A DNA stretch of 64,000 nt from an uncultured Pseudomonadales bacterium (GTDB lineage: Bacteria > Patescibacteriota > Microgenomatia > UBA1400 > Chazhemtobacteraceae). The DNA lies in contig CAZUBK010000003.1 in the NCBI GenBank assembly GCA_964618725.1, forward strand, positions 10,236 through 74,235, written 5' to 3'. The notes beneath the pieces are model-generated. The model did no database searches. It saw only the letters and a program-made list of their open reading frames with translations, and was not told where the DNA came from. How positions within the stretch are numbered: the first letter of the stretch is position 1; each line of letters begins with the position of its first letter. Below, piece by piece: positions 34,361-58,432 of the stretch. The translations under genes were made by a program, and so were the position numbers.

Positions 34361-36061
34361 CTACATTGTCCTCACTTCCTCTACCGACGTCACTTCATTC
34401 AAACTTTTATCATCCCTAAACCTGACTAATCGAGGGAACCTCAATGCCACTCCGCCACTATGAATCGGCGATCGGGTTATCTCATCCGCCGCTATCTCCA
34501 CCACCAATCCGGGATCAACCCAAACATCTGGGTATAGATTCTTGTCTACTACGTACTCTTTCGGCCTAGTGGTACGTATTAACCTGTCCAACCTCTTCTT
34601 CATTTCCCTAAACTGCTCATCTGACAATCCCGTCCCTATCTTGGCAATTGTGACTACTTCATCTCCCCTTCTCACTCCCACCAGGAAAGCACCCAAACCA
34701 AAGATAGATCGCTTACCTCTGCCAGCATAATAGCCCATCACTACACAATCCAAAGTATCCGAAAGTTTTGCTTTCGCTTCTTCTACTTCCTTCATCTTCA
34801 CCCACCTCCAGCCCGTTCTCCCCGGTACGTATTTGCTTCCTAACATTTTCACCACCACTCCTTCTAGTCCTTGTTTCAATAATTCACGATGCGTCTTCTC
34901 AATTTTTTCCGCCTCATCAGTCGTCCAGTAATCATCGACCACTAACAGTCTTTTGTCCTTTATCGTTTCTTTTAAAATCCTCCGCCTTTCTTCATAGGTC
35001 TTGTCAATCAAACTCTTGCCGTTCTTGTACATCACATCAAAAACAAAGAACTTTAATGGCACCTTTTCCGCTTGTTCACCTATCCCATGTTTTCTTTTTC
35101 TGGTAATTGTCATCTGAAAAGACAACATTTTCTTGGTTGTAGGATCAAATCCAACTGCTTCACTGTCCAACACCAGTTCGTCTGCTGATACATCCTCTCC
35201 CATTTTTGCCAACTCGGGAAACATGTGACTTACTTCTTCTAAGTTTCTCGTAAAAACTCTGACAAAACCTTTCCCTCCCCTCCTAAAATGAATCTGAGCC
35301 CTAAGCCCGTCAAACTTCGGCTCCACTGCCACCTCGCCCATTTTCTTCACCATCTCTTTTGGCGACTTAAGTCTTTGGCACAACATCGGGCTAATCGGTA
35401 TCCCTAGTGTCGCCTCAATCTCTACCATCGCCCGTTCAATCCCTTTTTTCTTGATATCCTCTACCAACTGTCCAATATCTGGCTTAATTTGGTAAGCCAG
35501 CTCCAGTTGATCCTTCAGACTCTTGTCTCCCCTTTCCATCACTGATATGGCATCTAAAATCGTCTTGTCCGAAAAGCCCAATCTTAGTTTTCCCATTACA
35601 ATCCTCACCACATACCGGGCTGACAATGACTCCATCTTCTGAATTAATCTCGCCAAACCTTCTATCTTTCTTTCTTGAGAACCCGCCCCCTCATCCCCCG
35701 CTATCTCCATTAATCGCCGATATACTCCACTTACATCACCCTCACCCCTTTCCGATGGCTGCATTTCACTTAGTTTCTCCGCCACCACTCCTAAGTCACC
35801 CAACTGTTTGTATAGTTTCCCCACCCTCTCTTCCGTAACTACAAAGCCACTTGCCAACGACTTCTGCACTTGTTTTTCTGCTAGATTAAACTGCACCCTG
35901 GCAAACGACGGCCCCAGTTGACCTAAAGAGAGATAGATAAGTGGTTTCACCTCTGACTCATCCACGTTCTTCAGTAGATTGGCCAATATCTCCGTCATCG
36001 TGTTTCTCGACGCCGTGTTTTCCAACTCTCTAAATATCTCCGCTAACTCTATGAATTTCAC
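34361..36061 (-). CDS. ATP-dependent DNA ligase
   Basis: EPKFDGLRAQIH (KxDG adenylation motif I). N-terminal DNA-binding domain plus adenylation/OB domain layout. Confidence 0.8.
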   Translation of the reverse strand: MKFIELAEIFRELENTASRNTMTEILANLLKNVDESEVKPLIYLSLGQLGPSFARVQFNLAEKQVQKSLASGFVVTEERVGKLYKQLGDLGVVAEKLSEMQPSERGEGDVSGVYRRLMEIAGDEGAGSQERKIEGLARLIQKMESLSARYVVRIVMGKLRLGFSDKTILDAISVMERGDKSLKDQLELAYQIKPDIGQLVEDIKKKGIERAMVEIEATLGIPISPMLCQRLKSPKEMVKKMGEVAVEPKFDGLRAQIHFRRGGKGFVRVFTRNLEEVSHMFPELAKMGEDVSADELVLDSEAVGFDPTTKKMLSFQMTITRKRKHGIGEQAEKVPLKFFVFDVMYKNGKSLIDKTYEERRRILKETIKDKRLLVVDDYWTTDEAEKIEKTHRELLKQGLEGVVVKMLGSKYVPGRTGWRWVKMKEVEEAKAKLSDTLDCVVMGYYAGRGKRSIFGLGAFLVGVRRGDEVVTIAKIGTGLSDEQFREMKKRLDRLIRTTRPKEYVVDKNLYPDVWVDPGLVVEIAADEITRSPIHSGGVALRFPRLVRFRDDKSLNEVTSVEEVRTM

Positions 36062-37164
36062 CTTATTAAACTCTTAAGGATATATTTAGCTCCTTTGGTT
36101 CTTCCTTTCTTTCTAACTAATCCTTTCTTAATTAATCCTTTCAGATCTCTTAAGATTGTATCATCGCTCACCTCGGCAAACACCGCTCTCATCTGTATCA
36201 AAGTAATCCAGTCTTTTGCTTCCATATAACTTATCAAGTTTATCTGCCGCTCATTCAAAGCAATTTGCCGATTCAGTCTCTCCTGCACCTGAAGATCTAC
36301 TGTCAACCGTCTCACTTTTTGTTTTGTTTTTTCTGTTTCGTCCCGTAGCAGCTCACTCCACATCTCCATCCAAGCCGTCAGATCCATCTCTTTTTCCGCC
36401 TGCACTAGCGCTTGATACCAATCTAACAAGTTCTCTGATCTGACTTCTTCAAGTCCCACTAGTCTCCTCTCCGACAGCCCCTCGATCGCCAACATAAAAA
36501 AGACAAAGGCCCGAGTGATTACATTACTCTTCGTCCTAAAGGGATAAACCCTACTCAGCTCAAAATCAGTTATCGCCACTTTCAACACCGGGTGTAATTC
36601 TCTTGCCTCTCTCGTGTTCAACCAAGCAAATAGATCATTAATCTGAAAACTTACTTCAACCGCATTCGGTGGTCGAAAAACAAAATTACCCATCCCCACC
36701 TCACCAAGTTGCTCCTTTCTCCACTCCCCAATCTCTTCCACAGAAACCAATTTCTCTAAGATCAATGTCTCTATCTGTAATAGCAACTCCTTACTATAGA
36801 TATAGCTCCCTCCTCTCCGTCTCTGCATCACTATCCATTGATCAATAATCTTCAACCCATTTCTTAAATTCATCACTTCCTGCACTTCACTCTCTCGTCC
36901 TCTTATCCCTACTCTCGCTCCTATTTCCGAAGCAACATCTCCTCTTAATGGGTCCTCTTGGATGATTTTCTCAATTTGATGCTGATCTAACCCGTTCCCT
37001 TCTACCCTAAGGCTAAACAGTATCTGTTTCACTATTACTTCTTCTCGCAATTTCATTTCCCAAGAACTTACCAGGGGAGTTATTCCAATCAACTCTTTCG
37101 CCGCTTCAATTCTAGCTACATCAACAAGTGTTTTGTTACTTATTCTAAACCGAGGAAAATACAT
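36058..37164 (-). CDS. Fic-family-like protein with degenerate catalytic motif and C-terminal winged-helix
   Basis: SLRVEG matches the Fic inhibitory-helix motif [ST]xxxE[GN]. The position of HPFx[DE]GNGR is occupied by YPFRTKSNVITR. Basic wHTH-like C-terminus. Confidence 0.4.
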   Translation of the reverse strand: MYFPRFRISNKTLVDVARIEAAKELIGITPLVSSWEMKLREEVIVKQILFSLRVEGNGLDQHQIEKIIQEDPLRGDVASEIGARVGIRGRESEVQEVMNLRNGLKIIDQWIVMQRRRGGSYIYSKELLLQIETLILEKLVSVEEIGEWRKEQLGEVGMGNFVFRPPNAVEVSFQINDLFAWLNTREARELHPVLKVAITDFELSRVYPFRTKSNVITRAFVFFMLAIEGLSERRLVGLEEVRSENLLDWYQALVQAEKEMDLTAWMEMWSELLRDETEKTKQKVRRLTVDLQVQERLNRQIALNERQINLISYMEAKDWITLIQMRAVFAEVSDDTILRDLKGLIKKGLVRKKGRTKGAKYILKSLIR

Positions 37165-43065: not shown

Positions 43066-44028
43066 CTATTTAAACACTTCTTCCACGTCCTCTTCCCACT
43101 TGTCTTTTGGCAACCTCTTTATCAAACTCTTAAACTGTAACTCCTCAAATAACGTCAGAACTTTCTCTCGATCATAATCACTTAAGCGACAGTTCTTCCA
43201 ATCTAACTTTATCGGCGCCCAACAATCTATCGTCGCCAATTTCTTACTTAAAAAGGCCTTTTCCTCTCCCTCCTCGAGTAGCTTTGTCACCCTTTCTCCC
43301 ATCACCTTCACTATCTCTTCTCTCTGATTTTTCAACACCTTATACATCTTCTCCACCGACTCCCATGCCTGGAGCAATTTGGTCGCCGTCTTAGGTCCCA
43401 CCCCCTTTATGCCCGGGATATTATCGCTACTATCTCCCATCAATGCCTTTAACTCAATGATTTGTCTGGGAGTAAGACCGTATTTCGCTTTGACCGCTTC
43501 TTCATCATATTCCTGACTCCCTCTGTCTTTTCCATATTTCCCCGGCGCTGGCGGCATCCATACTACTACTTTCTTGTCATCAACTAGCTGCAGTGCATCT
43601 CGATCTCCCGTCGCAATTACAATCTGGAATCCATCTTTAGTTTCAGCCTGCGTTGCCAATGTCCCAATCAAGTCATCGGCCTCAAATCCCTCTTTGCCAA
43701 ACTGAGGTATATTCAAGGCATCTACCACTTCATGAGTTCTCTCAATCTGAGATAGCAGCGCCTCATCCGGTTTTTCTCGGTTCGCCTTGTACTGCTCATA
43801 CTCAAAGTGTCTGAAAGTCGGTGCACCTACATCCCAAGTCACTATGACATGTGTTGGCTGTAGCTTCTCCAGAATCGTGAATAGAATGGCGGTGAATCCA
43901 TAAACTGCATTCACTATCTCCCCACTTTTTGTCGACAGACTCAGCGGATATGCATGATATGCCCGATGTAGAATCGACATACCATCTACCAATACGAGTT
44001 TCCTTTTCACCATCATTCTATTCTTCAT
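43066..44028 (-). CDS. Stand-alone 5'-3' exonuclease (Pol I N-terminal domain / FEN-like)
   Basis: LVLVDGMSILHRAYHA N-terminus. Acidic metal-binding clusters and helix-hairpin-helix region. 320 aa. Confidence 0.75.
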   Translation of the reverse strand: MKNRMMVKRKLVLVDGMSILHRAYHAYPLSLSTKSGEIVNAVYGFTAILFTILEKLQPTHVIVTWDVGAPTFRHFEYEQYKANREKPDEALLSQIERTHEVVDALNIPQFGKEGFEADDLIGTLATQAETKDGFQIVIATGDRDALQLVDDKKVVVWMPPAPGKYGKDRGSQEYDEEAVKAKYGLTPRQIIELKALMGDSSDNIPGIKGVGPKTATKLLQAWESVEKMYKVLKNQREEIVKVMGERVTKLLEEGEEKAFLSKKLATIDCWAPIKLDWKNCRLSDYDREKVLTLFEELQFKSLIKRLPKDKWEEDVEEVFK

Positions 44029-47000
44029 CAGTACTTACCTTTTTCTTCTTCATTATCTTTTCAAACTCATCTGCCTCGACTGTCTCATGATCAAGTAGTG
44101 CCTCAGCTAGTTTGTCTACCACTATCCTATTTGCCTTCAATACAATCATTGCTTTTTTACTTGCCGTCTCAACCAGCTCTTTTACTTCTAGATCGATCTT
44201 GCTTTTTAGCCCCTCTGAAATCTGCACTGGCTCCATATATGATCGTCCCCAATCATTCATCTCCCACATCGGCCCCATCGCCATTGGTCCAAGGCCAGAC
44301 ATCCCCAGATCCATTACCATACTCCTAGCAATCCTCGTCGCCTTCTCAATATCACTAGAGGCTCCTGCCGTTAGTTCTTTAAAGATCAATTGCTCTGCCG
44401 CCCGTCCCCCCATCATCATCGCCAATTGGTCGAGCAATTCCGACTTAGTCTGTTGGTATTTGTCTCGATCCGGCAATGCCAACGTCTGACCCAAGCTCTG
44501 TAACCGACTGACAATACTTACCCGATGTACCGGATCTGCCCCTGGCAACATATGCCCTACCACTGCGTGTCCCGCCTCATGATATGCCGTCATCTTTCGC
44601 TCTAAAGGCGACTGTAGTCTCTTCTTTTCCGGTCCCAGCTTTACTTTCGTCGCCGCCTCCTCCAAATCCTTCATCTCTATTTTCTTCCGTGCATATCTTG
44701 CCGTCAAAATAGCTGCCTCATTAAGCATGTTCTCCAAATCTGCTCCCGAAAAACCTACCGTTCTCCTCGCCACCTTGTCCCAATTAATTCCGTCCAAAAA
44801 AGGTTTGTTTTTGGCATGAATTGCCAAGATATCCTTCCTTCCCTCGATATCCGGCATGTCTAATGAGATTCGTCGATCAAATCTTCCCGGACGAATCAAG
44901 GCTGGATCCAATAACTCCGGCCTATTTGTCGCCGCCAACACAATCACATTATCATTGGGCAAGAATCCATCCATCTCGACCAAGATCTGATTCAACGTCT
45001 GTTCTCTTTCGTCATGACCCCCCATTCCTCCTCCCATTCCTCTCATCCGCCCAATCGCGTCTAATTCGTCTATAAAGATGATCGATGGTGCTGCTTTTTT
45101 TGCCGTCAAAAATAGGTCCCTGGTTCTACTTGCTCCCACCCCTACCAACATCTCCATAAACTCACTCCCCGCCATGCTGAAAAACGGCACTCCAGCCTCT
45201 CCGGCCACAGCCTTCGCCAAGAGAGTATTGTGATTAACGAAACCGTTTCCGACAAATGAATGCGTTCCAGGTACCGTAAAATCATAGACCCTTGCTTGAG
45301 ATTTTGTTACCTTTTTCACTTTATCCAGAAAAATACCTGAGTTCACGATCAGTTCCAGATATGCGTAATCTTCGTTCAGCGATATGGCCGGATCAACCTT
45401 CAGACACGAATGAAGAAATAATCTGACCGATTGCATATTTGGTGATCTTTCTCCTGTAACATACCTACAGATTTGCTTGTGGAAGCTATCACCAACGTAC
45501 TTTGAAGGTTTTTTACCGGATTCGACCAGGTATCGCCAAATTCTCTTTATCCTCGCTCCTTGGTAGTAAACCAAGTCTACATTGGTTCTTAGCTTTACAC
45601 TTCCTATGTATCTTGTCAGTCTATCTTGCTTCCTTTTTAATCTAAATCCAATTTGTTGCGAAAACCTTATCAAATTCGTGCCTGAAATCAGAATCATATA
45701 CGCCGTCGAGAACTGGTTCATTCCCTTCACTCGAAACTTATGCATTACCCCCAAATTCAAAAGGAGAGCACTAACCTGTCTTGCCATTTTTTCGCTGGTT
45801 GTTGTATATTCAACCTTCCCAGTTTTGTATACCGACCCATCCGTATCGAACAATCCCTGTAAAAAAGCAACTATGTTTTCTTTCGGAGACATCATTACGT
45901 AATCTGGAACTTTTTTATGTCTTGCATATACCTCTTCCATCCCGTAATTAACCATTTTCGACTTTATCACTGAAGAAGTGACCAAATAATCATATTTTCT
46001 ACTCTTGGTTTTTTTCACCTTGTATCCGAACTCCTCTTGAAAGTAATTTTGGAAACTCAAAAGCAACTGTCTATCCGCCGTCGAGAAATAGATTCTATCT
46101 TTAATGGTAAGTCCCCCATCTCCTGCCAAAAGTCCCAAAAGATAACTCGTCTTTGAATCAAGCAATTTGTAGCTCCCAAACATTTGATCGCCGGTCTTAA
46201 TCACAACAGAATCACCCTTTTTTATTTCCTCTATTTTTTTGAATTTCAGTCGTCCATCCTTATCCATCACTACCAACGGATGTTCAAAAGTTCCTTCGAT
46301 CCTATGCCCCATATCGGTTTGGATCTTGATAGTATCTGAAATTCCCAAGTCATACCAGTGTGATGCACTAGCAACCGTTTGAACTGGATTCTCAGGATCA
46401 AAAGAGGCAAGAGAAGCTCCATGAACATAACCGCTATCCTCGACCGCGAAGTATTTTGGTATATCCTTGATTTCCATTAAGCCCTTGTTTGTTAATACTA
46501 AAGAGTCCCCAGTAATACACTTTCCCACACCCGCCGGACCAATAAGGAGCACTCCCTTGGGTGTCCTCGCTCCCACCGCTTTGTACTTCTTCGGATTCTT
46601 CAGAAAATCTACCACTTCTTCCAGTTCTTTCTTCGCCTCATCTACCCCCGCCACATCTTTGAAAGTCACATTTTGTTTACCCTTGGCAAATAGCTTGGCT
46701 CTGCTTTTGCCAAAACCAAAGATACTTTCCTGTGCTCCCCGTGCTGATCGAGTCATAAACCAAAGAATAAAAGCAAATGCCACAATTGGTAAGACATTGA
46801 CTAATACTCCCGATATCAACTTACCCACCGCCTGAGATCCCACCTTCACCGGCACTCTATCTGCCGCAATTCCTTCTCGCTGCAAGATCTCCACAAAACT
46901 ACTCCCTTCCTCTTTCCTCGATATCTTTATATCTTCTTCACCATAGGTCAGCAAAATTTCGTCTCCCTGTAGTTCTACTTGTTTGACTTTACCATCCTTA

Positions 47001-47185
47001 ATGTCCGACATTGCCTGTGATATATCTATATTAGGCAGTAGTGATGCTGGATCCAGGAAACTGAGCAAAAACGGAACAAACATCAATAAGATCAGTAACC
47101 AGATTGCTACCTTTTTCAGATTGAAATTCATTTTGACTTCAATTTTCTTTATCGGTTTCTGTTCTACTTTCTCTTCGCTAGCCAT
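44018..47185 (-). CDS. ftsH: ATP-dependent zinc metalloprotease FtsH, interrupted by an intein in the Walker A motif
   Basis: N-terminal TM segments. The AAA domain is split as GPAGVGK|C...HN|TLLAKAVAGE, and the exteins rejoin to give GPAGVGKTLLAKA. SRH region. HEAGH zinc motif. C-terminal helical domain. Confidence 0.85.
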   Translation of the reverse strand: MASEEKVEQKPIKKIEVKMNFNLKKVAIWLLILLMFVPFLLSFLDPASLLPNIDISQAMSDIKDGKVKQVELQGDEILLTYGEEDIKISRKEEGSSFVEILQREGIAADRVPVKVGSQAVGKLISGVLVNVLPIVAFAFILWFMTRSARGAQESIFGFGKSRAKLFAKGKQNVTFKDVAGVDEAKKELEEVVDFLKNPKKYKAVGARTPKGVLLIGPAGVGKCITGDSLVLTNKGLMEIKDIPKYFAVEDSGYVHGASLASFDPENPVQTVASASHWYDLGISDTIKIQTDMGHRIEGTFEHPLVVMDKDGRLKFKKIEEIKKGDSVVIKTGDQMFGSYKLLDSKTSYLLGLLAGDGGLTIKDRIYFSTADRQLLLSFQNYFQEEFGYKVKKTKSRKYDYLVTSSVIKSKMVNYGMEEVYARHKKVPDYVMMSPKENIVAFLQGLFDTDGSVYKTGKVEYTTTSEKMARQVSALLLNLGVMHKFRVKGMNQFSTAYMILISGTNLIRFSQQIGFRLKRKQDRLTRYIGSVKLRTNVDLVYYQGARIKRIWRYLVESGKKPSKYVGDSFHKQICRYVTGERSPNMQSVRLFLHSCLKVDPAISLNEDYAYLELIVNSGIFLDKVKKVTKSQARVYDFTVPGTHSFVGNGFVNHNTLLAKAVAGEAGVPFFSMAGSEFMEMLVGVGASRTRDLFLTAKKAAPSIIFIDELDAIGRMRGMGGGMGGHDEREQTLNQILVEMDGFLPNDNVIVLAATNRPELLDPALIRPGRFDRRISLDMPDIEGRKDILAIHAKNKPFLDGINWDKVARRTVGFSGADLENMLNEAAILTARYARKKIEMKDLEEAATKVKLGPEKKRLQSPLERKMTAYHEAGHAVVGHMLPGADPVHRVSIVSRLQSLGQTLALPDRDKYQQTKSELLDQLAMMMGGRAAEQLIFKELTAGASSDIEKATRIARSMVMDLGMSGLGPMAMGPMWEMNDWGRSYMEPVQISEGLKSKIDLEVKELVETASKKAMIVLKANRIVVDKLAEALLDHETVEADEFEKIMKKKKVSTDEE
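45227..46519 (-). mobile_element. Intein (431 aa) with LAGLIDADG homing-endonuclease domain inside ftsH
   Basis: Begins with Cys (residue 223) directly after the P-loop Lys. Ends ...VNHN followed by +1 Thr. Two LAGLIDADG motifs (LLGLLAGDGG, FLQGLFDTDGS). Coordinates derived by codon counting from the start at 47185. Confidence 0.75.
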
Positions 47186-47213: not shown

Positions 47214-47241
47214 ACAAAAAAGGGCACGCTTTCGCGTGCCC
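47214..47241 (-). terminator. Terminator GGGCACGC-GAAA-GCGTGCCC + TTTTTTGTGG (minus strand)
   Basis: Perfect 8-bp stem with a GAAA loop and a T-run on the minus strand. 5 nt after the 47249..47599 stop. Confidence 0.6.
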
Positions 47242-48242: not shown

Positions 48243-48262
48243 GGGCACGCTTTCGCGTGCCC
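48243..48262. repeat. Second identical copy of the GGGCACGC-TTTC-GCGTGCCC hairpin, between convergent genes
   Basis: Exact 20-nt repeat of 47222..47241. Weak flanking T/A tracts. Confidence 0.5.
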
Positions 48263-50262: not shown

Positions 50263-50532
50263 CTAAACCAGTTCCACCCTTAACTCCGCTTCTAATACTT
50301 TTGCCACCTTCCTAAGAAACGATAGCGAGGGTAAAGCACCCATACCTTCTAATCTAGAAATCGCCGACTGACGAGTCCCAAGACGCTTTGCTAATTGTGC
50401 CTGAGTCAGTTTTTTATCAAGTCTTTTTTGAATCACAGCTCTTGCCACCTGATATTCAAGCTCAAACTCTTTTAGTGCCTTTCTGAATTCAGGATTCTCT
50501 AATAGTTTTTTTTTGTGTGTTTCCCAGTTCAT
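50263..50532 (-). CDS. XRE-family HTH antitoxin (HigA-like)
   Basis: LTQAQLAKRLGTRQSAISRLE helix-turn-helix. Immediately downstream of a RelE/HigB-like gene. Confidence 0.6.
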   Translation of the reverse strand: MNWETHKKKLLENPEFRKALKEFELEYQVARAVIQKRLDKKLTQAQLAKRLGTRQSAISRLEGMGALPSLSFLRKVAKVLEAELRVELV

Positions 50533-50568
50533 GAAACCAATATTATCACAAAAAGGTGATAATACAAG

Positions 50569-50928
50569 TTAAACATAAGTCTCGTCTAACCTCACCAAAG
50601 CCATCTTGATCTCCCTTTTATCTATTCTTTGTTTCTTCTTCTTAAACCCATGAAGAATGATTATCGATCTTCCCTTGAAGATATATAGAAATCTCAAACT
50701 ATCATTTCCCAAAAGTCTTAGTTCCCACAAAGGTGTACCAACTATCCTCTTAGCATGAGGTAAACCTGTACGATATCCATATTCTTCTAGTAAGGCAAAG
50801 GCTGCAGCCATTTTCCCCTGCGCGGCTACATTCAGTCTTTCGATGAATTCGTAGACTGGACTATTACCCCGCCTATTTTTGTAATATGCTATCTGCCACT
50901 TTACTTCATTAACCATGTTTATTTTCAC
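50569..50928 (-). CDS. RelE/ParE-superfamily toxin (HigB / Gp49-like)
   Basis: LWELR ... RFLYIF.G..IIILHGFKKK pattern of HigB/Gp49 toxins. The toxin lies upstream of the HTH antitoxin, as in higBA. Confidence 0.55.
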   Translation of the reverse strand: MKINMVNEVKWQIAYYKNRRGNSPVYEFIERLNVAAQGKMAAAFALLEEYGYRTGLPHAKRIVGTPLWELRLLGNDSLRFLYIFKGRSIIILHGFKKKKQRIDKREIKMALVRLDETYV

Positions 50929-51142: not shown

Positions 51143-51214
51143 TGCGGGCGGTAGGTCGGTATTCTAAGAAGGCTCATAATCTTCTCTAACCAGGTTCGAC
51201 TCCTGGGCTCGCAA
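51143..51214 (+). tRNA. tRNA with anticodon CAT (second CAU tRNA; Met/fMet/Ile2 undetermined)
   Basis: Hand-folded: acceptor TGCGGGC/GCTCGCA (one G-U). D-arm TAGG/TCGGTAT/TCTA (A11:U24). Anticodon stem GAAGG/TCTTC with loop CTCATAA. T-arm CCAGG/TTCGACT/CCTGG. No CCA. Confidence 0.6.
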
Positions 51215-51280
51215 CCCGAAGTTCTCGTAGAGAACGTAGGTCCTGAGCTCAAAAAAGCGAGGGACGATCACAATTCTATT

Positions 51281-51667
51281 TCATCTAAACAATTTCCACC
51301 ACTTCTCCCAATTAAACACCTCCCTTTCCTCTGTCACTTCTTTATTCTCCTTTTGAGATTCTACGTCCTGTACCATTACAACCGTCTCTCCAGGTCGTTG
51401 TAGATTTAGTTTCTCTCGTGCCTGCATCTCGATGAACTCCCCACTCTCCACTTCCCCCAGCTTATTTCTTAATTCTTCATTCTTCTTTCTCTCCCCCGCT
51501 AATTCGTTCCTTGCCTCCTCTATTCTTCCCCCTGCCTTATATAACTGCCACAGTCCATTACTAAGTACCCAAATCATATAAACAAATAGAAATAGTAGAA
51601 GGGTTCTCCCCAAGTTTGCTCTCATACGTCTTGACTTAAAATGGTTCCTGATATAGTCTACAACCAA
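51281..51667 (-). CDS. Septum formation initiator family protein (FtsB/DivIC-like)
   Basis: N-terminal TM helix followed by a coiled-coil (EEARNELAGERKKNEELRNKL...). 128 aa. Confidence 0.55.
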   Translation of the reverse strand: MVVDYIRNHFKSRRMRANLGRTLLLFLFVYMIWVLSNGLWQLYKAGGRIEEARNELAGERKKNEELRNKLGEVESGEFIEMQAREKLNLQRPGETVVMVQDVESQKENKEVTEEREVFNWEKWWKLFR

Positions 51668-51756: not shown

Positions 51757-52629
51757 ATGACTCAAACCAGCCCCCTCTACCAATCCCTTACTCAATTTGA
51801 AAAGAGTCTCAAGGATTCCGGCCGAGCTACTGCCACCATTCTAGCCTATACCAAAGACATTGAGCAGCTCTTAGATTTCGTCTCCGCTTCCGGCAAAACC
51901 ACTCCTCAGCAAATCACCGCTGATGACATTAATGCTTTCAAGATAAAGCTTTCTAATGAAAACTACACCGCCAAATCTATCTCTCGTAAGATAAACTCTA
52001 TTAAGTCTTTCTTCCGATTTCTTCAAAGCAATAAAGAAATAGAGAGTAACCCCGCCCTTCAGATTACCCACCCCAAGTATGAACTCAAACCGCCTCGTAT
52101 TCTTACCAAAGTTGAATACCGCGCTCTTCGCGACTCTTGCCGCGACGATGCTCGTATTAGTGCAATCGTTGAGCTCCTTCTTCAAACCGGTATCCGCATT
52201 GGTGAATTAGCCAATCTTTCCCTTGAAGATCTAGACCTGGATAATAGTAAGATCTTCATCAAAGCTTACGAGTCTCATCCTTCCCGCCACGTTCCCGTTA
52301 ATAAGGCTGCTAAAGACGCCCTCGTTCGTTACCTCGGTGATCGACCTAAAACTGAACAAAAGTTTGTTTTTATCACCAAAACCGGAAACCAGTTCTTAGT
52401 TAGAAACATTAGAAGTAGCATTGACCGCTATTTCCGCATCGCTGGAATTGAAAACGCCAAGGTCAACGACCTTCGCCATACTTTCATTGCCCACCAGCTC
52501 ATGTCTGGAACCCCCCTCGTCTATGTTAGTAAACTCGTTGGTCATAAGCGCCTCTCTACCACCGAGAAGTATCTTGATGTCATCAAAGAAAAGACTGACA
52601 AAGAGAAACCTAAACTAGAAGAGCTCTAA
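51757..52629 (+). CDS. Tyrosine site-specific recombinase, XerC/XerD-like
   Basis: N-terminal SAM-like core-binding domain. C-terminal R...HxxR...Y catalytic set (LRHTFIAHQL...VGHKRLSTTEKYL). Confidence 0.75.
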   Translation: MTQTSPLYQSLTQFEKSLKDSGRATATILAYTKDIEQLLDFVSASGKTTPQQITADDINAFKIKLSNENYTAKSISRKINSIKSFFRFLQSNKEIESNPALQITHPKYELKPPRILTKVEYRALRDSCRDDARISAIVELLLQTGIRIGELANLSLEDLDLDNSKIFIKAYESHPSRHVPVNKAAKDALVRYLGDRPKTEQKFVFITKTGNQFLVRNIRSSIDRYFRIAGIENAKVNDLRHTFIAHQLMSGTPLVYVSKLVGHKRLSTTEKYLDVIKEKTDKEKPKLEEL

Positions 52630-52643
52630 GTTTAATGAAAGAG

Positions 52644-53072
52644 CTACGTAGTGGGTTTTTTATTGGCTCTCTTTATTAGCCTTTTCAGTTCCTTTACTGT
52701 CGCTTTTGCTATAAATCTAAGTACTTCTCCCACTTTTTCTACATCTCCTATCATCAAAGATAGCCAGCCACTACTCGACTTCCTTCTGTCTTCTACAATC
52801 AATAAGGCATTCTTTACGTGTGACAATTCCATTTCCATTCCGCTCACCTCGTCTATGACTATTATCGTCACTGGATTCCCCCCAAGTCCTAACTCTCCTG
52901 AAATAGTCATCCCGTCCTCCTCCATCGCCGACAACTGCAATTCAGTCTCGAACTCGTTCAACTCCTCATCTTCCCAATCCGGATACAACTCCGTAATTAA
53001 GGGTGACTTACCTGCCACCTGAAGTATTCGATCTTTTTTCTCTTTTCCTACTTTCTTCGACATCTGATGCAC
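52644..53072 (-). CDS. Hypothetical protein (142 aa)
   Basis: ORF only. Confidence 0.35.
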   Translation of the reverse strand: MHQMSKKVGKEKKDRILQVAGKSPLITELYPDWEDEELNEFETELQLSAMEEDGMTISGELGLGGNPVTIIVIDEVSGMEMELSHVKNALLIVEDRRKSSSGWLSLMIGDVEKVGEVLRFIAKATVKELKRLIKRANKKPTT

Positions 53073-53107
53073 AAGAATAGTCCTTCTATCAATCTAAGTC
53101 AATGCTG

Positions 53108-53179
53108 TGGGCGACTCAGGGCTCGAACCTGAAACCAATTGTGTATAAGACAATCGCTCTACCATTGAGCTAGTCGCCC
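53108..53179 (-). tRNA. tRNA-Ile with anticodon TAT (UAU), predicted AUA decoder
   Basis: Hand-folded: acceptor GGGCGAC/GTCGCCC. D-arm GCTC/AATGGTA/GAGC. Anticodon stem ATTGT/ACAAT with loop CTTATAC (U33, A37, anticodon UAU). T-arm TCAGG/TTCGAGC/CCTGA. Discriminator A. Confidence 0.65.
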
Positions 53180-53206
53180 GTGTCCCCCCCTATTTTACTA
53201 CGAAAA

Positions 53207-53917
53207 TTACTCCTTAGCCTCCACCAACTCCACATATATCCCTCGGTGATCCGACAGATCCCATTCCTCATCCAACAACTCGTCCACAAAACACCTCACC
53301 TTAATCTCTACCTCATCATGGGTTGTCATTACATAGTCCAATTTCTCGCCCTTCTTAAGGAACGACGCTCCCATACCTTTTGTCAGATCAGTTATCTTCT
53401 TCGTCAGTTTCTCATACAACACCGACCCTTCCTTCACGTTAAGGTCTCCTGCCACAATTACCCGCTCTTTCTCTCTTATTAAGCCTATCAAGTCGTCAAT
53501 CTGTCTGATTTGATGACTGTCGAGTTTTTTCTTGTCCCTATATGCCCTAACTAGGTGAGCATTCACCACCGTTATCCCCAATTTGTCTAGCTCAACCGCC
53601 CACATACCTTTTCCTAAAAGTCGGTCCGCCATCTGCTTAGACAAAAACTTACCCTGCTTCTTAAATCTTAAAAACTTCCCTCCGACAGACTTGTCCTTGG
53701 TCATGACGATAAGCCCACCTTTGATCCACACCCAACCCCTCTGGAAAAACAATTTATACCCCAAGTTCTCAAAATGCTTGATATCTTTGGCAAAAATAAC
53801 TTCCTGTAAAAAAACCACATCAGCATCCAAACGACTAATCACTTCAGCAATTCTCGGAAAACGCTTCTCTCTCCCAGTAAATGGTAAACCATGGCAGTTG
53901 AGACTAATTAGCTTCAT
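53207..53917 (-). CDS. Endonuclease/exonuclease/phosphatase (EEP) family protein
   Basis: MKLISLNCHGLPF ... VVFLQEV N-terminal EEP motifs. Conserved His/Asp near the C-terminus. Confidence 0.7.
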   Translation of the reverse strand: MKLISLNCHGLPFTGREKRFPRIAEVISRLDADVVFLQEVIFAKDIKHFENLGYKLFFQRGWVWIKGGLIVMTKDKSVGGKFLRFKKQGKFLSKQMADRLLGKGMWAVELDKLGITVVNAHLVRAYRDKKKLDSHQIRQIDDLIGLIREKERVIVAGDLNVKEGSVLYEKLTKKITDLTKGMGASFLKKGEKLDYVMTTHDEVEIKVRCFVDELLDEEWDLSDHRGIYVELVEAKE

Positions 53918-53926
53918 AATTTGTTG

Positions 53927-56278
53927 TTACATTTCGCCCCTTGCCTCTATCTCTGCCTCTACTTCTTCCCTATCTCGTCCATACTTAAGCCTTGATAGTT
54001 CTTTAATCATTCTTCTTACTTCATCACTTCCTGACGCATTTTCTTTTTTAAGATCTCTCCAAGTACTCATCGAAAACGGCGGAACCGGCGTCCCGGCCAC
54101 AATCGTCTTAGCATAAGCCGTTTGGGCCGGAATATTGGTCAAGTCAGCCTCATTAAACACCGGGCCAAATTCCGGTGCCATAATATTTGCATCTTGCACT
54201 CCCATGCGATACACCACCATCGTACCGACGTTGCCAAATATCGCGTTCCTGACTTCTTCATCAATTTGACTTACAAACTGGTTCGCCACAACTAGTCCTA
54301 ATCCGTACTTACGAGCCTCAGATAATATCTGGGCAAAGTCCGGCGTGGCAAAGTTTTGAAACTCATCAACATAGAAGAAGAATGGGTGTCTTTCTGACTT
54401 GGACATATCTTGTCGTGAAAGTGCTGCTGACAGTATCTTTGGCACAATCACGTTACCCAAAAAGTTGCTGTCCTCTTCACCAACCAATCCTTTGGCTAGT
54501 TTAAGTAACACAATTTTCTTCTCATCCATCAATTTTCTAAAGTTAAGTACTGACTTGCTCTGACCAATAATATTCCTTATCAACTTATTTGTGATGAATT
54601 TCCCAAACTTAGACGCGATATAGTCAAGTGTTTCCGATTTGTGAAAGTCCGATGTCTGAGCAATCTGTTCCGTCCAATATCGCTTCACAATCGGATCTTT
54701 GATTTTGGGTAGCAGGTCCTGTACCATTTTGCTATTTTGCAGGATCCGAGACACTTCAATGAAGGTTGCCCCCGGAATCACTGCCGCCGTCAACATCGCA
54801 TTTCGAATCGAGTGCTCAAAGCGAGGCCCGATGATTCCCGTTTTATGAGGATCATATAGTTTATACATCAGGTTAATGATCGACGAAGCCACCATATGCA
54901 TCTCGTCTTCATGTCTTACCTCAAGTAGGTTGAAACCCATCGGCCTCTCCTGATCCGCCGGATCAAACAACACCACATCCTCCGCTCTCTCTGGTGGAAT
55001 TAACCTGAGCAGTTCTTCAATACCGTCTCCGTGTGGCTCCATGAAACAAACTCCATGCCCCGCCCGGATATCCTGCAAAAGCATCGATTTAAGAGTCTCT
55101 GTCTTTCCGGTTCCCGTTCGACCTAGGATGTACATATGCTTCATCCTGTCCTCAGAACCAATGTAAATCGGTCTCTCCTGCCCCCGGTAGATACTCTTCC
55201 CCAAATACAATCCCGATGTTGGTAGTCCCCCCGTTGCCGGAGCAAACTTAGCCACCAACCAATGAATGTGAGGCGTGTCTACCGTCTTATTAGGCAAATG
55301 CCATACCGCCGCCAACTCATCGGCCGACAAAATCGAGTTATAACCAAACATCGACTGGTATCGATAAATGAAGTCAACCATGAAGCCCTTCTTCCATCGA
55401 ATCGTTCTCCCCGATAAATTGTTCAAACTCGAGTTGAACTGGGCAAAAGCACTCTTAAGGTTACTCAAGTTTCCTTTAGCTTGGCCCTCCGTCGGCGCTA
55501 CTGACAAAAGCCTAATCGCCGTCAAGAAGCCTGGCTTTCCCGTTTTGCTGTCAATCGCTGCCATATCCTCGGGAGACATCTTAAACTTTGCTTTTTCCGG
55601 ATTTGCTTCATCTTTCTTGGTTGTAGATAGAAATACTGATCCTGCCTTACTCCATGCTGACTCTGCCGGTGTCACGATCATTTGTATTATCATCGCCTCA
55701 CCCTCGCCCAATTTGGCCAATGACGCCGTAATCGAGCTCAAAGGGTCCACTGGCATATCCTTATATGGCTTCAATGGATAGAAATTCTTCTTTTTCAAAG
55801 CCAGTTCCGCAAAAGCGACCTTACCGTCCTTGCTAAAAACATTTGGCTCCTCCACTATTTTCACCTCGGCTCCTGAATATGCACCAGCCAAGAGCTTCTC
55901 CACCAACTCCGCATTGTTCCGATGGCAACTGACATAGAACCTGATATCTTCTTTCTTCGCCACAATCTCCAAACTAATATGCTGTTGCGCTCTAAATCTC
56001 TGCCAAAACCCCCCTTTCTTAATTGAATAAAGCGAGTTAAACACCTGCTCCATCGAATCAATCTTCACCTCATTATCTCGTGGAACTGCAATCTGCATTG
56101 TCACAAAGTTAAGCGAGACTTCTTCCCTGTTCCTAAACTTTATCCATTGCAGGAAAACAAATCCCAGTCCCACCATGATTAATATCAACACAGCCAAGAT
56201 TCCCACCGCCAACAATACCAACTCCACCATCTGGTTCAAATTACTTAATGTGGTGCCAACCAATTCTGTTCCCTGCAT
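53927..56278 (-). CDS. Membrane-anchored P-loop ATPase of the VirD4/TraG/TrwB type IV coupling-protein family (long N-terminal domain)
   Basis: N-terminal TM hairpin. Walker A GRTGTGKT. C-terminal VDEF...ARKYGLGLVVANQFVSQI...NVGTMVVYR closely resembles the TrwB/TraG-D C-terminal signature (DEL...GRKRGIRLVLAVQSIAQL...THVVFR). Confidence 0.6.
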   Translation of the reverse strand: MQGTELVGTTLSNLNQMVELVLLAVGILAVLILIMVGLGFVFLQWIKFRNREEVSLNFVTMQIAVPRDNEVKIDSMEQVFNSLYSIKKGGFWQRFRAQQHISLEIVAKKEDIRFYVSCHRNNAELVEKLLAGAYSGAEVKIVEEPNVFSKDGKVAFAELALKKKNFYPLKPYKDMPVDPLSSITASLAKLGEGEAMIIQMIVTPAESAWSKAGSVFLSTTKKDEANPEKAKFKMSPEDMAAIDSKTGKPGFLTAIRLLSVAPTEGQAKGNLSNLKSAFAQFNSSLNNLSGRTIRWKKGFMVDFIYRYQSMFGYNSILSADELAAVWHLPNKTVDTPHIHWLVAKFAPATGGLPTSGLYLGKSIYRGQERPIYIGSEDRMKHMYILGRTGTGKTETLKSMLLQDIRAGHGVCFMEPHGDGIEELLRLIPPERAEDVVLFDPADQERPMGFNLLEVRHEDEMHMVASSIINLMYKLYDPHKTGIIGPRFEHSIRNAMLTAAVIPGATFIEVSRILQNSKMVQDLLPKIKDPIVKRYWTEQIAQTSDFHKSETLDYIASKFGKFITNKLIRNIIGQSKSVLNFRKLMDEKKIVLLKLAKGLVGEEDSNFLGNVIVPKILSAALSRQDMSKSERHPFFFYVDEFQNFATPDFAQILSEARKYGLGLVVANQFVSQIDEEVRNAIFGNVGTMVVYRMGVQDANIMAPEFGPVFNEADLTNIPAQTAYAKTIVAGTPVPPFSMSTWRDLKKENASGSDEVRRMIKELSRLKYGRDREEVEAEIEARGEM

Positions 56279-56637
56279 CAGCCTTGTTCACTCTTGTAGA
56301 ATACCCTCCCTGGGTATTTCTTGATTAAATAAACGCAGAATGTCGCTGCCCACAGAATTGCATCAGCAATTTTATGGTGCAATCCTTCACTTATTTCTCT
56401 CTCTGTTAATGGCAACTCAATCGGCGGTTCTGATATTGCCTCCTCTAACACTACCTGTCCCTTGTCATCCTTAACTGGCGTCGTCAGTGTCGGCGGCTGA
56501 ACCTGCTGAACCACTTGGCTGACGTCAGAAGCCATCTCCGCATGCTTCTCCACCTTCTCTATATACCCATCTACTTCTGCCGTCGCTATCTCTTCTGGTG
56601 TCAACTGCCGCTCTTGTTCCTTCCCCAATATGGTCAT
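56278..56637 (-). CDS. Small protein with C-terminal TM anchor, translationally coupled to the ATPase
   Basis: Its stop overlaps the ATPase start (ATGA). Single C-terminal hydrophobic helix. Confidence 0.4.
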   Translation of the reverse strand: MTILGKEQERQLTPEEIATAEVDGYIEKVEKHAEMASDVSQVVQQVQPPTLTTPVKDDKGQVVLEEAISEPPIELPLTEREISEGLHHKIADAILWAATFCVYLIKKYPGRVFYKSEQG

Positions 56638-56671
56638 GACTCAATAATATCACCCTCAAAGATACAAAGTT

Positions 56672-56691
56672 GGGGAAGCTTTCGCTTCCCC
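56672..56691 (-). repeat. Hairpin GGGGAAGC-GAAA-GCTTCCCC (copy 1), 3' of small 2-TM gene
   Basis: Exact 20-nt inverted repeat. An identical copy sits at 57809..57828, and the flanks ACAA..TTGGGG / CCCC.AT are also shared. Confidence 0.55.
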
Positions 56692-56701
56692 TATCGACAT
56701 C

Positions 56702-56884
56702 CTATACTCCCAGTAAGCTTGAAAATACCATCAAGTCAAGAATCCACAAACCCATTGAGACACTCATCACCCCCAGACCGAACATAAATTTTAGACCAAG
56801 TGTCTTACTTCGCCACATTAAATTAATGGCCCACATAGTCAACACGGTTGCCAAAAAGGTCAACAGCATCATAAACAAACCCAT
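56702..56884 (-). CDS. Small 2-TM membrane protein (60 aa), paralog of 57842..58057
   Basis: Aligns with the 71-aa ORF (W..RLM.R..S.G.KF.FG...MSV...LW..DLM). Followed by a GGGGAAGC-GAAA-GCTTCCCC hairpin. Confidence 0.45.
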   Translation of the reverse strand: MGLFMMLLTFLATVLTMWAINLMWRSKTLGLKFMFGLGVMSVSMGLWILDLMVFSSLLGV

Positions 56885-56941
56885 GGCTCACCTTCATCCT
56901 TTGTCTAAGGTACGATTCACAGATTTAACCACATAAAACCG

Positions 56942-57763
56942 TCAAAAATCAAGCTGTTTACTAGATAAAAAATTCCTTCCTGAAACAACTGATCGACCTA
57001 GTTTTTCTTCAAGTTTTTTTCTTGCTCCACCAGCAATATCTCCACCTATTTCAGCATCTTTTTTAAGCTTTAGTAATCCCTGTGAGTTCTCGGTCTTGTG
57101 GATCTCCGTTGTTGCCCGTTCCCCAAGCATCGTGAAGATAAGCTCAAAGTCATCCATATGATCACGCAGATTCTCTCGCTTAAGACCCTTGAGATCCTTG
57201 TATTCACTAGGCGTAATCCCAAAAGTCGCTTTAGAAATCTCCGCCGTTAGAATTTCATAATCACTTTGCTGTTCTGCTCCCCGCTTTTTCCATTCATCTG
57301 TTAATTCTTCACGGATTATAATCCCCCTCATCCTTTTCTCAATCCAATCCTCAGAATACCCTTTTGCCTTGTATAACGCTCTAGTTCGTTTAGCTGCCAA
57401 CTCAGGATCTTCTATTTCTTGAACTCTTTCATAACCAACTTTAGCTAACCAGCGTTTAAACGGTTCAGCTTTAGGAGAGGGAATTGACTGAATAATTCTG
57501 AACATCGTTTCGGTATTCGCACAATCAGTCTCACGAATCTTTCCATCAAGAGCATCTAATTTCAACCGTCCGATTTTTTCGGACACTTCAGAATAACCTT
57601 CTTTAGCAAGCTTTGTCTTAAGATCGTTCCAGTATTTCCTCGGCCGATCTGTTCCAGTTAGACTTTCTACTATATCCACAATCGAAAACCACCATTCATT
57701 GGCGTAGATTATCTTCCGTATTTTCTTTCCCTTAAAAATCGCAATCTTTGTGTTTGTCTCCAT
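56942..57763 (-). CDS. DinD-like / Bro-N domain protein (DNA-damage-inducible protein D family)
   Basis: N-terminal Bro-N-like region (KIRKIIYANEWWFSIVDIVESL). The C-terminal KGLKRENLRDHMDDFEL...IHKTENSQG segment resembles E. coli DinD (KGLKKNQKILDHMGSTEL...KLKRDGV). Confidence 0.55.
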   Translation of the reverse strand: METNTKIAIFKGKKIRKIIYANEWWFSIVDIVESLTGTDRPRKYWNDLKTKLAKEGYSEVSEKIGRLKLDALDGKIRETDCANTETMFRIIQSIPSPKAEPFKRWLAKVGYERVQEIEDPELAAKRTRALYKAKGYSEDWIEKRMRGIIIREELTDEWKKRGAEQQSDYEILTAEISKATFGITPSEYKDLKGLKRENLRDHMDDFELIFTMLGERATTEIHKTENSQGLLKLKKDAEIGGDIAGGARKKLEEKLGRSVVSGRNFLSSKQLDF

Positions 57764-57808
57764 AATATATTTGTATCAACTTCGGGTATCAATAGCAAGA
57801 ACACAACT

Positions 57809-57828
57809 TGGGGAAGCTTTCGCTTCCC
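57809..57828 (-). repeat. Hairpin GGGGAAGC-GAAA-GCTTCCCC (copy 2), 3' of small 2-TM gene
   Basis: Identical to 56672..56691. Confidence 0.55.
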
Positions 57829-57841
57829 CATTGTTCCCAGA

Positions 57842-58057
57842 TCAAAATCCCAAGAAAATCATCAAAAACATCAGATCCATCAACCACAAGGCAATTACAC
57901 TCACCATAATAAACATCCCAAAGACAAATTTGACCCCCACCGAGTTATTTCGTGCCATCAATCTGACTGCCCAGATCGAGAGCCCAATAGCAGATATTGT
58001 CAAAATCATGACTATCAATCCTGATATCATTGACGTTCCTTTCTGAACAAAGAGCAA
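57842..58057 (-). CDS. Small 2-TM membrane protein (71 aa), paralog of 56702..56884
   Basis: See its paralog. The identical hairpin sits 12 nt after the stop. Confidence 0.45.
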   Translation of the reverse strand: MLFVQKGTSMISGLIVMILTISAIGLSIWAVRLMARNNSVGVKFVFGMFIMVSVIALWLMDLMFLMIFLGF

Positions 58058-58132
58058 TACCCAATACTGTACACAATTTATTTCAAAACATCGATACCTT
58101 CACTTGCCTTTTCCTCAATCTTAGCTCATAAT

Positions 58133-58387
58133 ATGGACATCTCATGCAAAGGAGCCAATTTGAACACCCTGTACATTCTCAAAGGTAGTCTTTTCTCCAT
58201 GGAAGCCGAAAGACTGCTCCGCGAAAGCGGTGTCGAGTTCAAGGCAATCCATATTGAGGAAGGATACTTAGTCGATACTACGGACTTCTACCCTCTTTTC
58301 ATCCACAATCTCCCCACTCTCATCACAGAGAACCAGCAATTCGAGGGACTTCACGAAATCAAGATTTTCCTCGCTGGTCTTACATAA
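58133..58387 (+). CDS. Glutaredoxin/NrdH-like thioredoxin-fold protein lacking the CxxC motif
   Basis: YILKGS-LFSMEAERLL...GVEF..I.I aligns to the Grx beta-alpha-beta start, but CPYC is replaced by SLFS. Divergent from the RNR operon. Confidence 0.3.
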   Translation: MDISCKGANLNTLYILKGSLFSMEAERLLRESGVEFKAIHIEEGYLVDTTDFYPLFIHNLPTLITENQQFEGLHEIKIFLAGLT

Positions 58388-58432
58388 CTTATGGCCGGGG
58401 GTGACCCCGGCCAAACCTCTTCCCCGAAATTT

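Follow-up and report, generated by a model that had tools for sequence, protein, structure and literature searches.

Nearly all Patescibacteria, a group that accounts for much of bacterial diversity, carry ATPases resembling type IV coupling proteins (T4CPs). In Quinonero-Coronel et al. 2025 (PMC12102498), 5,713 VirD4-type T4CP homologues are counted in 2,918 of 3,035 genomes (96%), with only 148 of them near virB4; VirB4 itself is recorded in 2,417 genomes and relaxases in only 103. The ATPase described here, a 783-aa protein encoded on the minus strand at positions 53927-56278 of a 64,000-nt stretch of contig CAZUBK010000003.1 (hereafter the window), almost certainly belongs to the class of orphan VirD4-type T4CPs set out in that study. 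The gene lies in a 6.3-kb region (51757-58057) that an earlier note on this DNA, made from the sequence alone, had taken for accessory, mobile-like DNA and possibly for the remnant of an integrative element. Our analysis points instead to a vertically inherited piece of a Collierbacteria-like chromosome (Microgenomates, candidate phyla radiation or CPR) in which the ATPase is a DUF8128-type coupling protein expected to translocate a substrate, a reading that we favor with moderate confidence.

A fixed locus in Microgenomates chromosomes

The genes of the region were defined using an open reading frame (ORF) list, a tRNA scan and family searches (Pfam, NCBIfam). The backbone that they form, which is colinear in dozens of Microgenomates genomes, is composed of p119, a gene for a small soluble partner of 119 aa (56278-56637, minus strand), the ATPase gene, tRNA-Ile(UAU) (53107-53179, minus strand), p142, encoding a 142-aa conserved hypothetical protein (52644-53072, minus strand), and, convergent with p142, the gene for a Xer-type tyrosine recombinase (51757-52629, plus strand) with 62-63% identical orthologues. 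It continues into the genes for DivIC, tryptophanyl-tRNA synthetase (TrpRS) and FtsH on one side, and into those for a class II ribonucleotide reductase (RNR) and NrdR on the other. The gene tables around three homologues of the ATPase present one fixed order, running from NrdR through RNR, a ~120-aa protein, the ATPase, a ~123-aa protein, Xer (on the opposite strand), DivIC, TrpRS, a tRNA-binding protein, FtsH, a 5'-3' exonuclease, GT4 and Fpg to an SMC_N protein. The window is colinear with Collierbacteria over ~25 kb, reaching the FtsH, 5'-3' exonuclease, GT4, Fpg and RecF-like genes, and the order p119-ATPase-tRNA-Ile-(p142)-Xer-DivIC recurs in Collier-, Woese-, Chisholm-, Beckwith-, Ames- and Levyibacteria.

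When 85 related loci were probed by tblastn, with the window's own proteins as the only queries, p119 was matched upstream of the ATPase in 64 loci, Xer downstream and on the opposite strand in 63 (48-68% identity across relatives, with position and orientation kept), DivIC in 54, RNR in 49, TrpRS in 41 and p142 in 38. Across these loci the ATPase is conserved to the same degree as RNR or TrpRS. In 21 of the 23 relatives scanned for it, the ATPase gene is closely followed by tRNA-Ile(UAU), and the tRNA-Met genes near DivIC and TrpRS are likewise conserved. With one genome scanned for each GTDB species, a relative of the ATPase was identified in at least 583 species genomes, the best 80 of which (55-72% identity) come from the six groups named above. 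Database searches returned at least 100 full-length homologues with 66-75% identity over 94-99% of the query, those with a name being assigned to Collierbacteria or Woesebacteria, and no database record of the exact sequence. Taken together, these data show that the locus is strongly conserved, fixed and under strong purifying selection, and that in the Microgenomates one ATPase of this kind is a tightly constrained core gene with a coupled partner of its own.

The composition of the backbone is native. Relative to a background GC content at third codon positions (GC3) of 0.486 +/- 0.040, the genes for the ATPase, p119, p142 and Xer have values of 0.46-0.51, within one standard deviation. No att-like copy of the tRNA 3' ends was detected in the 64 kb with up to 3 mismatches allowed, no flanking direct repeats were found, and tRNA-Ile(UAU) is a member of the syntenic block rather than an attachment site. 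None of the 50 window proteins scanned has a Pfam match to a relaxase, VirB4 or capsid family (of the scanned proteins lacking any family match, 14 lie outside the 6.3-kb region), and neither the window nor the gene tables of five relatives contain relaxase or mating-pair-formation genes. Because the backbone order recurs in relatives, att repeats are absent and the composition is native, the region is not accessory or mobile DNA, and the combination of integrase, tRNA, T4CP and Bro-N is therefore no island marker for genome annotation here. The earlier note had been right to list a tyrosine recombinase near tRNA genes (tRNA-Met and tRNA-Ile(UAU)) and to note the lack of relaxase, VirB4 and capsid genes. 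The mobile character that it had drawn from them gives way to a backbone that is syntenic across six Microgenomates groups and present in sister genomes, and synteny of this kind is what the note itself had named as evidence against its reading; the att repeats and deviant GC content that it had suggested looking for are not seen in this backbone.

The ATPase and its coupled partner

Judged by its sequence, the ATPase belongs to the DUF8128-type family of coupling proteins (T4CPs), of which it is a chromosomal representative, and is not FtsK-like. The Pfam models TrwB_AAD_bind (43.6 bits, cut-off 20.5) and TraG-D_C (30.1 bits, cut-off 22) both match over threshold, the latter across residues 632-696, the DEF..ARKYGLGLVVANQ stretch, whereas FtsK_SpoIIIE scores 17 bits (cut-off 24) and covers the P-loop only; DUF87 is just over its cut-off. 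The best NCBIfam matches are T4CP models, far below cut-off (51.9 bits vs 250 for the top model), and weak matches to CedD and CedB, confined to the P-loop, are also far below cut-off. For VirB4, TIGR00929 reaches 20.9 bits against a cut-off of 643, and the Pfam models CagE_TrbE_VirB and AAA_10 have no match in the protein. Both the C-terminal TrwB/TraG-D signature and the T4CP-like, rather than FtsK-like, nature of the protein had been put forward in the earlier note and are upheld by these scores.

The single hydrophobic segment of the protein, at residues 12-49 (56132-56245, minus strand), has a Kyte-Doolittle maximum of 3.24, in agreement with the membrane anchor previously proposed for this 783-aa P-loop ATPase, and falls within a continuous helix spanning residues 4-55 in the AlphaFold2 (AF2) model. 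Since this helix is followed by KFRNREE, the positive-inside rule suggests that the remainder of the protein is cytoplasmic. The anchor leads into the DUF8128 domain (~residues 55-330; 55289-56116, minus strand), an alpha+beta domain whose predicted fold resembles the VirB4 N-terminal domain and which precomputed annotation assigns to Pfam PF26449, and then into the motor domain (~residues 350-783; 53930-55231, minus strand), composed of a RecA-like nucleotide-binding domain (NBD) and an inserted all-alpha domain (~residues 455-585). Walker A (GRTGTGKT, residues 386-393), Walker B (YVDEF, residues 636-640) and an ANQ motif (residues 665-667) are invariant in 47 sequences, and the AF2 model contains no gamma (winged-helix) domain. 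In the predicted structure a transmembrane (TM) anchor precedes a domain that appears similar to the N-terminal part of VirB4, and the motor resembles those of VirB4 and TrwB. An N-terminal domain of ~330 aa had been noticed before and is indeed present, but it is not unusual, as had been thought: the DUF8128 region searched alone matched 1841 clusters (at 50% identity), with many members of 800-1100 aa, and homology places the protein in a family of coupling proteins from the transfer modules of monoderms and archaea, in which a long N-domain is typical. Our literature search returned no papers on DUF8128.

The stop codon of p119 overlaps the ATPase start as TGATG. Among 87 loci analyzed by ORF position, 84 present a p119-family ORF upstream of the ATPase, with a stop-start overlap of -4 nt in 35 loci, -8 in 8 and -1 in 8. 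The protein is 43-45% identical to its Collierbacteria orthologues and has a conserved C-terminal amphipathic motif, which reads RWLAEWC..IKKYPGRVFY in relatives. Its maximum 19-aa Kyte-Doolittle value is 1.17 (family median 0.68, 87 homologues), indicating that it is not a TM protein; of the small coupled TM protein previously described upstream of the ATPase, the coupling stands and the membrane segments do not. No match to p119 was found in Pfam (including hits at E<=10), PHROG or PADLOC, and a p119 profile detected no homologue in the plasmid, phage or other-CPR loci encoding ATPases of this family. These results show p119 to be a Microgenomates-specific soluble partner that is translationally coupled to the ATPase.

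Outside the CPR, the relationship of the ATPase to transfer modules is apparent in both domains. The profile of the window family aligns by hhalign with an 886-aa protein of a B. subtilis plasmid (probability 99.8%, E 2e-30, 660 columns, query residues 74-760), and shows no similarity to the separate VirB4-like ATPase of that plasmid (probability 0.5%). The 886-aa homologue (NZ_CP032854.1, WP_121549396.1) opens the transfer operon of this 24.7-kb plasmid and is directly followed by a Replic_Relax gene, with TcpE, the VirB4-like ATPase and transfer genes further on. In tblastn searches, 356 plasmid records matched, including those of Bacillus, Streptomyces, Staphylococcus, haloarchaea and Sulfolobus pTC, the last of which encodes a 1019-aa TraG-like homologue (WP_011182890.1) together with a separate TraC. 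Homologues covering both domains were also identified by tblastn in large Bacillus phages (phage G gp156, 0305phi8-36 ORF201 and SPO1 gp27.4). The ATPase consequently falls into one family with the coupling proteins that conjugative elements of Gram-positive bacteria and archaea encode. In SPO1 (92636-95356), gp27.4 lies in a plasmid-like module composed of a partition protein, small ORFs, gp27.4 itself and then a Replic_Relax protein, and in phage G (90859-93336) a TraG-P-loop/AAA_10 protein precedes gp156; the function of the SPO1 and phage G proteins in these phages is apparently unannotated.

Neighboring genes and inserted cargo

The recombinase presents Phage_integrase and SAM-like domains, and its best NCBIfam matches are XerC, XerA and XerD (E 1e-48 to 6e-47), below the equivalog cut-offs (166 bits vs 335). 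No dif-like site was recognized in the spacer between xer and divIC. This divergent spacer carries a conserved TATTATAACACTCTAGG motif, probably a promoter element, in many Collierbacteria-like genomes (spacers of L001-L069); in the window this spacer is longer, with an incomplete version of the motif. Orthologues of p142, which has no family match in Pfam (including E<=10) or NCBIfam, are 36-45% identical, occupy the same position and were found in a Collierbacteria-like subgroup. Beyond the 6.3-kb region, the flank next to xer contains a DivIC/FtsB homologue matching Pfam DivIC (51281-51667, minus strand), a tRNA-Met gene (51143-51216), a Gp49/helix-turn-helix (HTH) pair, a second tRNA-Met gene and TrpRS.

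An endonuclease/exonuclease/phosphatase (EEP) gene (53207-53917, minus strand) begins 9 nt downstream of the ATPase stop. The EEP assignment made in the earlier note is confirmed by its Exo_endo_phos match (38.7 bits, cut-off 24.5), and its GC3 of 0.527 is native-like. The search turned up just two close homologues (60-63% identity), both on short contigs (L094 1-1246 and L095 1-993), where they directly follow an ATPase C-terminus 78-80% identical to that of the window, with spacers of 2 and 20 nt. We considered a purely strain-specific insertion and dropped this explanation, as the two sister contigs share the ATPase-EEP junction. Since the gene is kept behind the ATPase in both sister contigs, it is a clade-restricted, yet retained, addition to the operon. 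Where plasmids and phages encode homologues of the ATPase, this slot holds Replic_Relax; the genes downstream of the window ATPase (EEP and p142) have no Replic_Relax match. The slot between the ATPase and xer is also an insertion hot spot in relatives (L006, L009, L011, L018, L020, L052, L061 and L075), where the cargo, with labels read from the sequences and not from HMM searches, comprises among others an AAA-type protein (405 aa), LAGLIDADG-like proteins (218-227 aa) with an LYWGEG motif, genes for glycosyltransferases and membrane proteins, a SpoU-like methylase and, in L052, a PIN/VapBC-like pair together with an NT/HEPN-like pair.

The slot between RNR and p119 is occupied by cobA, encoding cob(I)alamin adenosyltransferase, in the closest relatives and by a Bro-N gene between two mini-protein genes in the window. 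The 273-aa Bro-N protein (56942-57763, minus strand) scores 46 bits against the Bro-N Pfam model (cut-off 25.6), matches phrog_15286 (E 7e-90) and aligns over residues 1-270 with positions 1-271 of the 286 in the PADLOC model PDC-S13 (E 1.3e-116). Its counterparts on plasmids come from several phyla and share 45-69% identity with it: a gene carried by a plasmid of Paracaedimonas, an alphaproteobacterial endosymbiont, reaches 69%, and those from Bacteroidota, Campylobacterota and Chloroflexota 46-56%, a distribution that points to promiscuous horizontal transfer. As the gene has a foreign-looking GC3 of 0.339, is absent from relatives and has this 69% identical plasmid counterpart, we conclude that it was horizontally acquired, in line with the earlier note, which had viewed it as cargo. 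The full-length model match places it among the PDC-S13/Bro-N 'antirepressor-like' proteins; it differs from the members found elsewhere in being flanked by orphan 2-TM mini-proteins with identical hairpins, an arrangement found nowhere else.

These mini-proteins are tm60, of 60 aa (56702-56884, minus strand; 56667-56884 including its hairpin), and tm62/71, encoded by the ORF at 57842-58057 (minus strand; 57805-58057 including its hairpin). The two genes had been listed before. The ORF of the second gives 71 aa, and the source record annotates it from a later start as 62 aa (57842-58030). The proteins are paralogous, as previously proposed (43% identity over 58 aa, E 3e-14), with two hydrophobic segments each, and their genes have native-like GC3. 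A search of 5.8 billion proteins with tm62/71 recovered only itself, tblastn with both against the window and the related loci revealed no further copies, and Pfam searches at E<=10 gave nothing meaningful for either. A VirB2-like pilin of a type IV secretion system (T4SS) was considered for them and rejected, given that they have no TrbC/VirB2 or T4SS_pilin match and that 60-62 aa leaves no room for a leader peptide. The terminator hairpin of tm60, GGGGAAGC-GAAA-GCTTCCCC (56672-56691), is identical to that of tm62/71 (57810-57829). They are two of four perfect minus-strand hairpins, in each of which a stem of 8 bp is closed by a GAAA tetraloop, the others lying at 47222-47241 and 48243-48262, and the four comprise two sequence types with two copies each; because all are located just downstream of minus-strand genes, they are probably the genome's preferred terminators.

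The third insertion is the Gp49 (HigB-like) and HTH_3 (HigA-like) pair (50263-50928, minus strand; Pfam), which sits between the two tRNA-Met genes and is foreign-looking in composition (GC3 of 0.383 for Gp49 and 0.356 for HTH). The toxin is absent from relatives, and the HTH protein has one weak match, with 35% identity, upstream of the ATPase in L084. The accessory parts of the locus, inserted into intergenic slots, are therefore the Bro-N (PDC-S13) gene with its two mini-protein genes, the genes for Gp49 and its HTH partner, and EEP, which is restricted to one clade: tblastn matched EEP, Bro-N, either mini-protein and the Gp49 toxin in 0 of the 85 related loci. For Bro-N, the mini-proteins and Gp49 the absence from sister genomes anticipated by the earlier note is thus observed, as is the GC deviation for Bro-N and the Gp49/HTH pair, in contrast to the backbone.

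Several further features of the window were recorded. The relatives' RNR is B12-type, and the comparison of window positions 58058-58432 with positions 9031-9600 of L087 shows that the window is without cobA at this site. FtsH (44018-47185, minus strand) is a 1055-aa protein with an intein in its AAA domain (Intein_splicing and LAGLIDADG_3, residues ~261-653), and the FtsH proteins of relatives are intein-less, with 626-631 aa. Positions 34361-37164 (minus strand) include an ATP-dependent (archaeal/eukaryotic-type) DNA ligase of 566 aa with a 4-nt overlap with the upstream Fic-domain protein. GC skew is uniformly and strongly negative across the window (1-64000), at -0.18 to -0.48 per kb, and the minus strand carries nearly all of its genes. 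This may be the same phenomenon as the 'unusual nucleotide composition disparity between two strands' that PMC7143001 reports for a complete Microgenomates genome.

Function and comparison with known systems

The predicted operon unit consists of p119 and the ATPase, with EEP as a third gene in the window's sub-clade. By analogy with TrwB, VirD4 and VirB4, the ATPase would assemble as a membrane-anchored hexamer in which ATP hydrolysis would recruit and push a macromolecular substrate, either DNA or protein, and p119 could act as an adaptor or regulator. Its likeliest route would be that of the coupling or energizing ATPase of a chromosomal Patescibacterial T4SS encoded elsewhere. Several points weigh against this proposal. 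The hexamer and the interaction with p119 are proposed by analogy, and in Southlakia epibionticum, according to PMC12102498, the T4CP homologue is non-essential, in contrast with other T4SS genes, which argues against an obligatory T4SS role. Moreover, as the genomes with a T4CP (2,918) outnumber those with VirB4 (2,417) in the same study, some T4CPs must act without a T4SS; its authors state that exaptation 'cannot be ruled out'.

The ATPase and p119, with or without EEP, could alternatively constitute a DNA translocator independent of a T4SS, comparable to Streptomyces TraB or archaeal Ced, for DNA export or import in an episymbiont, which was the second suggestion of the earlier note. The association of the ATPase family, on plasmids and in phages, with genes of the nicking or relaxase type, the wider spread of T4CP homologues than of VirB4 in PMC12102498, and the retention of EEP in the Replic_Relax slot of two sister contigs would all fit such a system, but no channel protein is conserved beside the ATPase, EEP is limited to a tiny sub-clade with the slot empty in most relatives, the weak CedD and CedB matches that might suggest it are restricted to the P-loop and far under cut-off, and in a cultured Saccharibacterium DNA uptake has been documented to proceed through ComEC-dependent competence (PMC12857230); we consider this explanation unlikely. 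An FtsK-like housekeeping role, in which the protein would serve as a septal DNA pump acting with the adjacent Xer and DivIC in dimer resolution or segregation, draws on membership of the FtsK/HerA superfamily, on conservation at the level of core genes and on an ATPase-Xer-DivIC adjacency found in 54-63 of 85 loci from several Microgenomates classes. This adjacency is weak evidence, however, because the block also holds the unrelated RNR, TrpRS and FtsH genes; the FtsK_SpoIIIE match is sub-threshold and limited to the P-loop, the model lacks a gamma domain, and the CPR paralogues in L086 lie beside SecDF and a giant protein rather than Xer. We judge this role decidedly improbable; a search of the literature on FtsK in Microgenomates returned nothing usable.

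The proximity within 6.3 kb of a tyrosine recombinase, tRNAs, a T4CP-like ATPase and Bro-N had suggested an integrative or conjugative element integrated at a tRNA, of which an integrase, a coupling protein and cargo would remain, and the varied cargo taken up by the block's intergenic slots in relatives is compatible with this idea. It is contradicted by the conserved synteny, with the recombinase, the ATPase and the tRNAs in the same order in dozens of genomes of different classes, by the missing att repeats and native GC3, by the lack of relaxase and VirB4 among the scanned window proteins and by a conservation of the ATPase that equals that of RNR or TrpRS; we have rejected this explanation as very improbable. 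It is hardly credible, too, that the protein is a defense-type, HerA/DptH-like ATPase in a defense island with PDC-S13 and toxin-antitoxin genes. PADLOC does return mad8 (E 1.6e-17) and weak HerA and DndH matches, PDC-S13 and Gp49/HTH lie nearby, and L052 carries VapBC and HEPN/NT genes in the slot behind its ATPase, but defense genes are patchy, whereas the ATPase locus is fixed in at least 583 species with 55-75% identity; in sequence the ATPase is closest to T4CPs encoded in conjugation modules, and it is the defense-like neighbors, not the ATPase, that are strain-specific. A bolder variant of the translocator and FtsK proposals holds that the Microgenomates DUF8128 ATPase and p119 were domesticated as a T4SS-independent DNA translocase, either as an FtsK stand-in beside the adjacent single Xer recombinase and DivIC or for DNA import or export in the episymbiont, and that the window's sub-clade then recruited EEP into the slot of the Replic_Relax nickase. 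We regard this variant as quite unlikely; the interest of the locus would rise if the ATPase were such a T4SS-independent housekeeping DNA pump.

The vertically inherited, DUF8128-type coupling protein that we favor can be placed with respect to the described systems as follows. The DUF8128-type coupling proteins of mobile elements are homologous to it in both domains (tblastn coverage of 76-90%); they differ in residing on mobile replicons, beside Replic_Relax or VirB4/TraC-like ATPases and transfer genes, whereas the window ATPase is chromosomal, has p119 as a partner of its own and is only 21-29% identical to them. On a CPR-like 607-kb metagenome contig (L086 4564-11216), two DUF8128-T4CP paralogues (835 and 1071 aa) stand in tandem, with a small ORF ahead of each (108 and 174 aa). 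They adjoin SecDF, and upstream of them lies a protein longer than 1554 aa that has no Pfam match. With the classical T4CPs (TrwB of R388, VirD4, DotL, Cag-beta) the ATPase shares a motor with an inserted all-alpha domain, TrwB_AAD_bind and TraG-D_C, but in these proteins an N-terminal TM domain of two helices leads straight into the NBD, as opposed to one helix and a ~280-aa domain, and those with solved structures match the ATPase only marginally in sequence (E 2e-4 to 4e-3). The ATPase lacks sequence-level membership of the VirB4 family (TrwK of R388; T. pseudethanolicus VirB4). FtsK/SpoIIIE acting with XerCD belongs to the same ATPase superfamily and Xer likewise adjoins the ATPase here, yet the structural and sequence match is distant and the gamma domain is lacking.

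Because orphan T4CPs in Patescibacteria have already been published, the novelty of the present locus with respect to PMC12102498 is modest. Wang et al. 2023, for their part, recognized neither a coupling protein nor a relaxase inside the essential T4SS cluster. The available text of PMC12102498 makes no mention of DUF8128 or a VirB4-N-terminal-domain-like domain, of p119 as a coupled partner, of the fixed tRNA-Ile/Xer/DivIC locus in Microgenomates or of the homologues in plasmid and phage Replic_Relax modules, and as far as this text shows these four points are not described there. Finally, a weaker proposal than domestication as a DNA translocase, and a likelier one, is that this class of T4CPs has retained a VirB4-like N-domain and would stand as an intermediate between VirB4 and classical VirD4.

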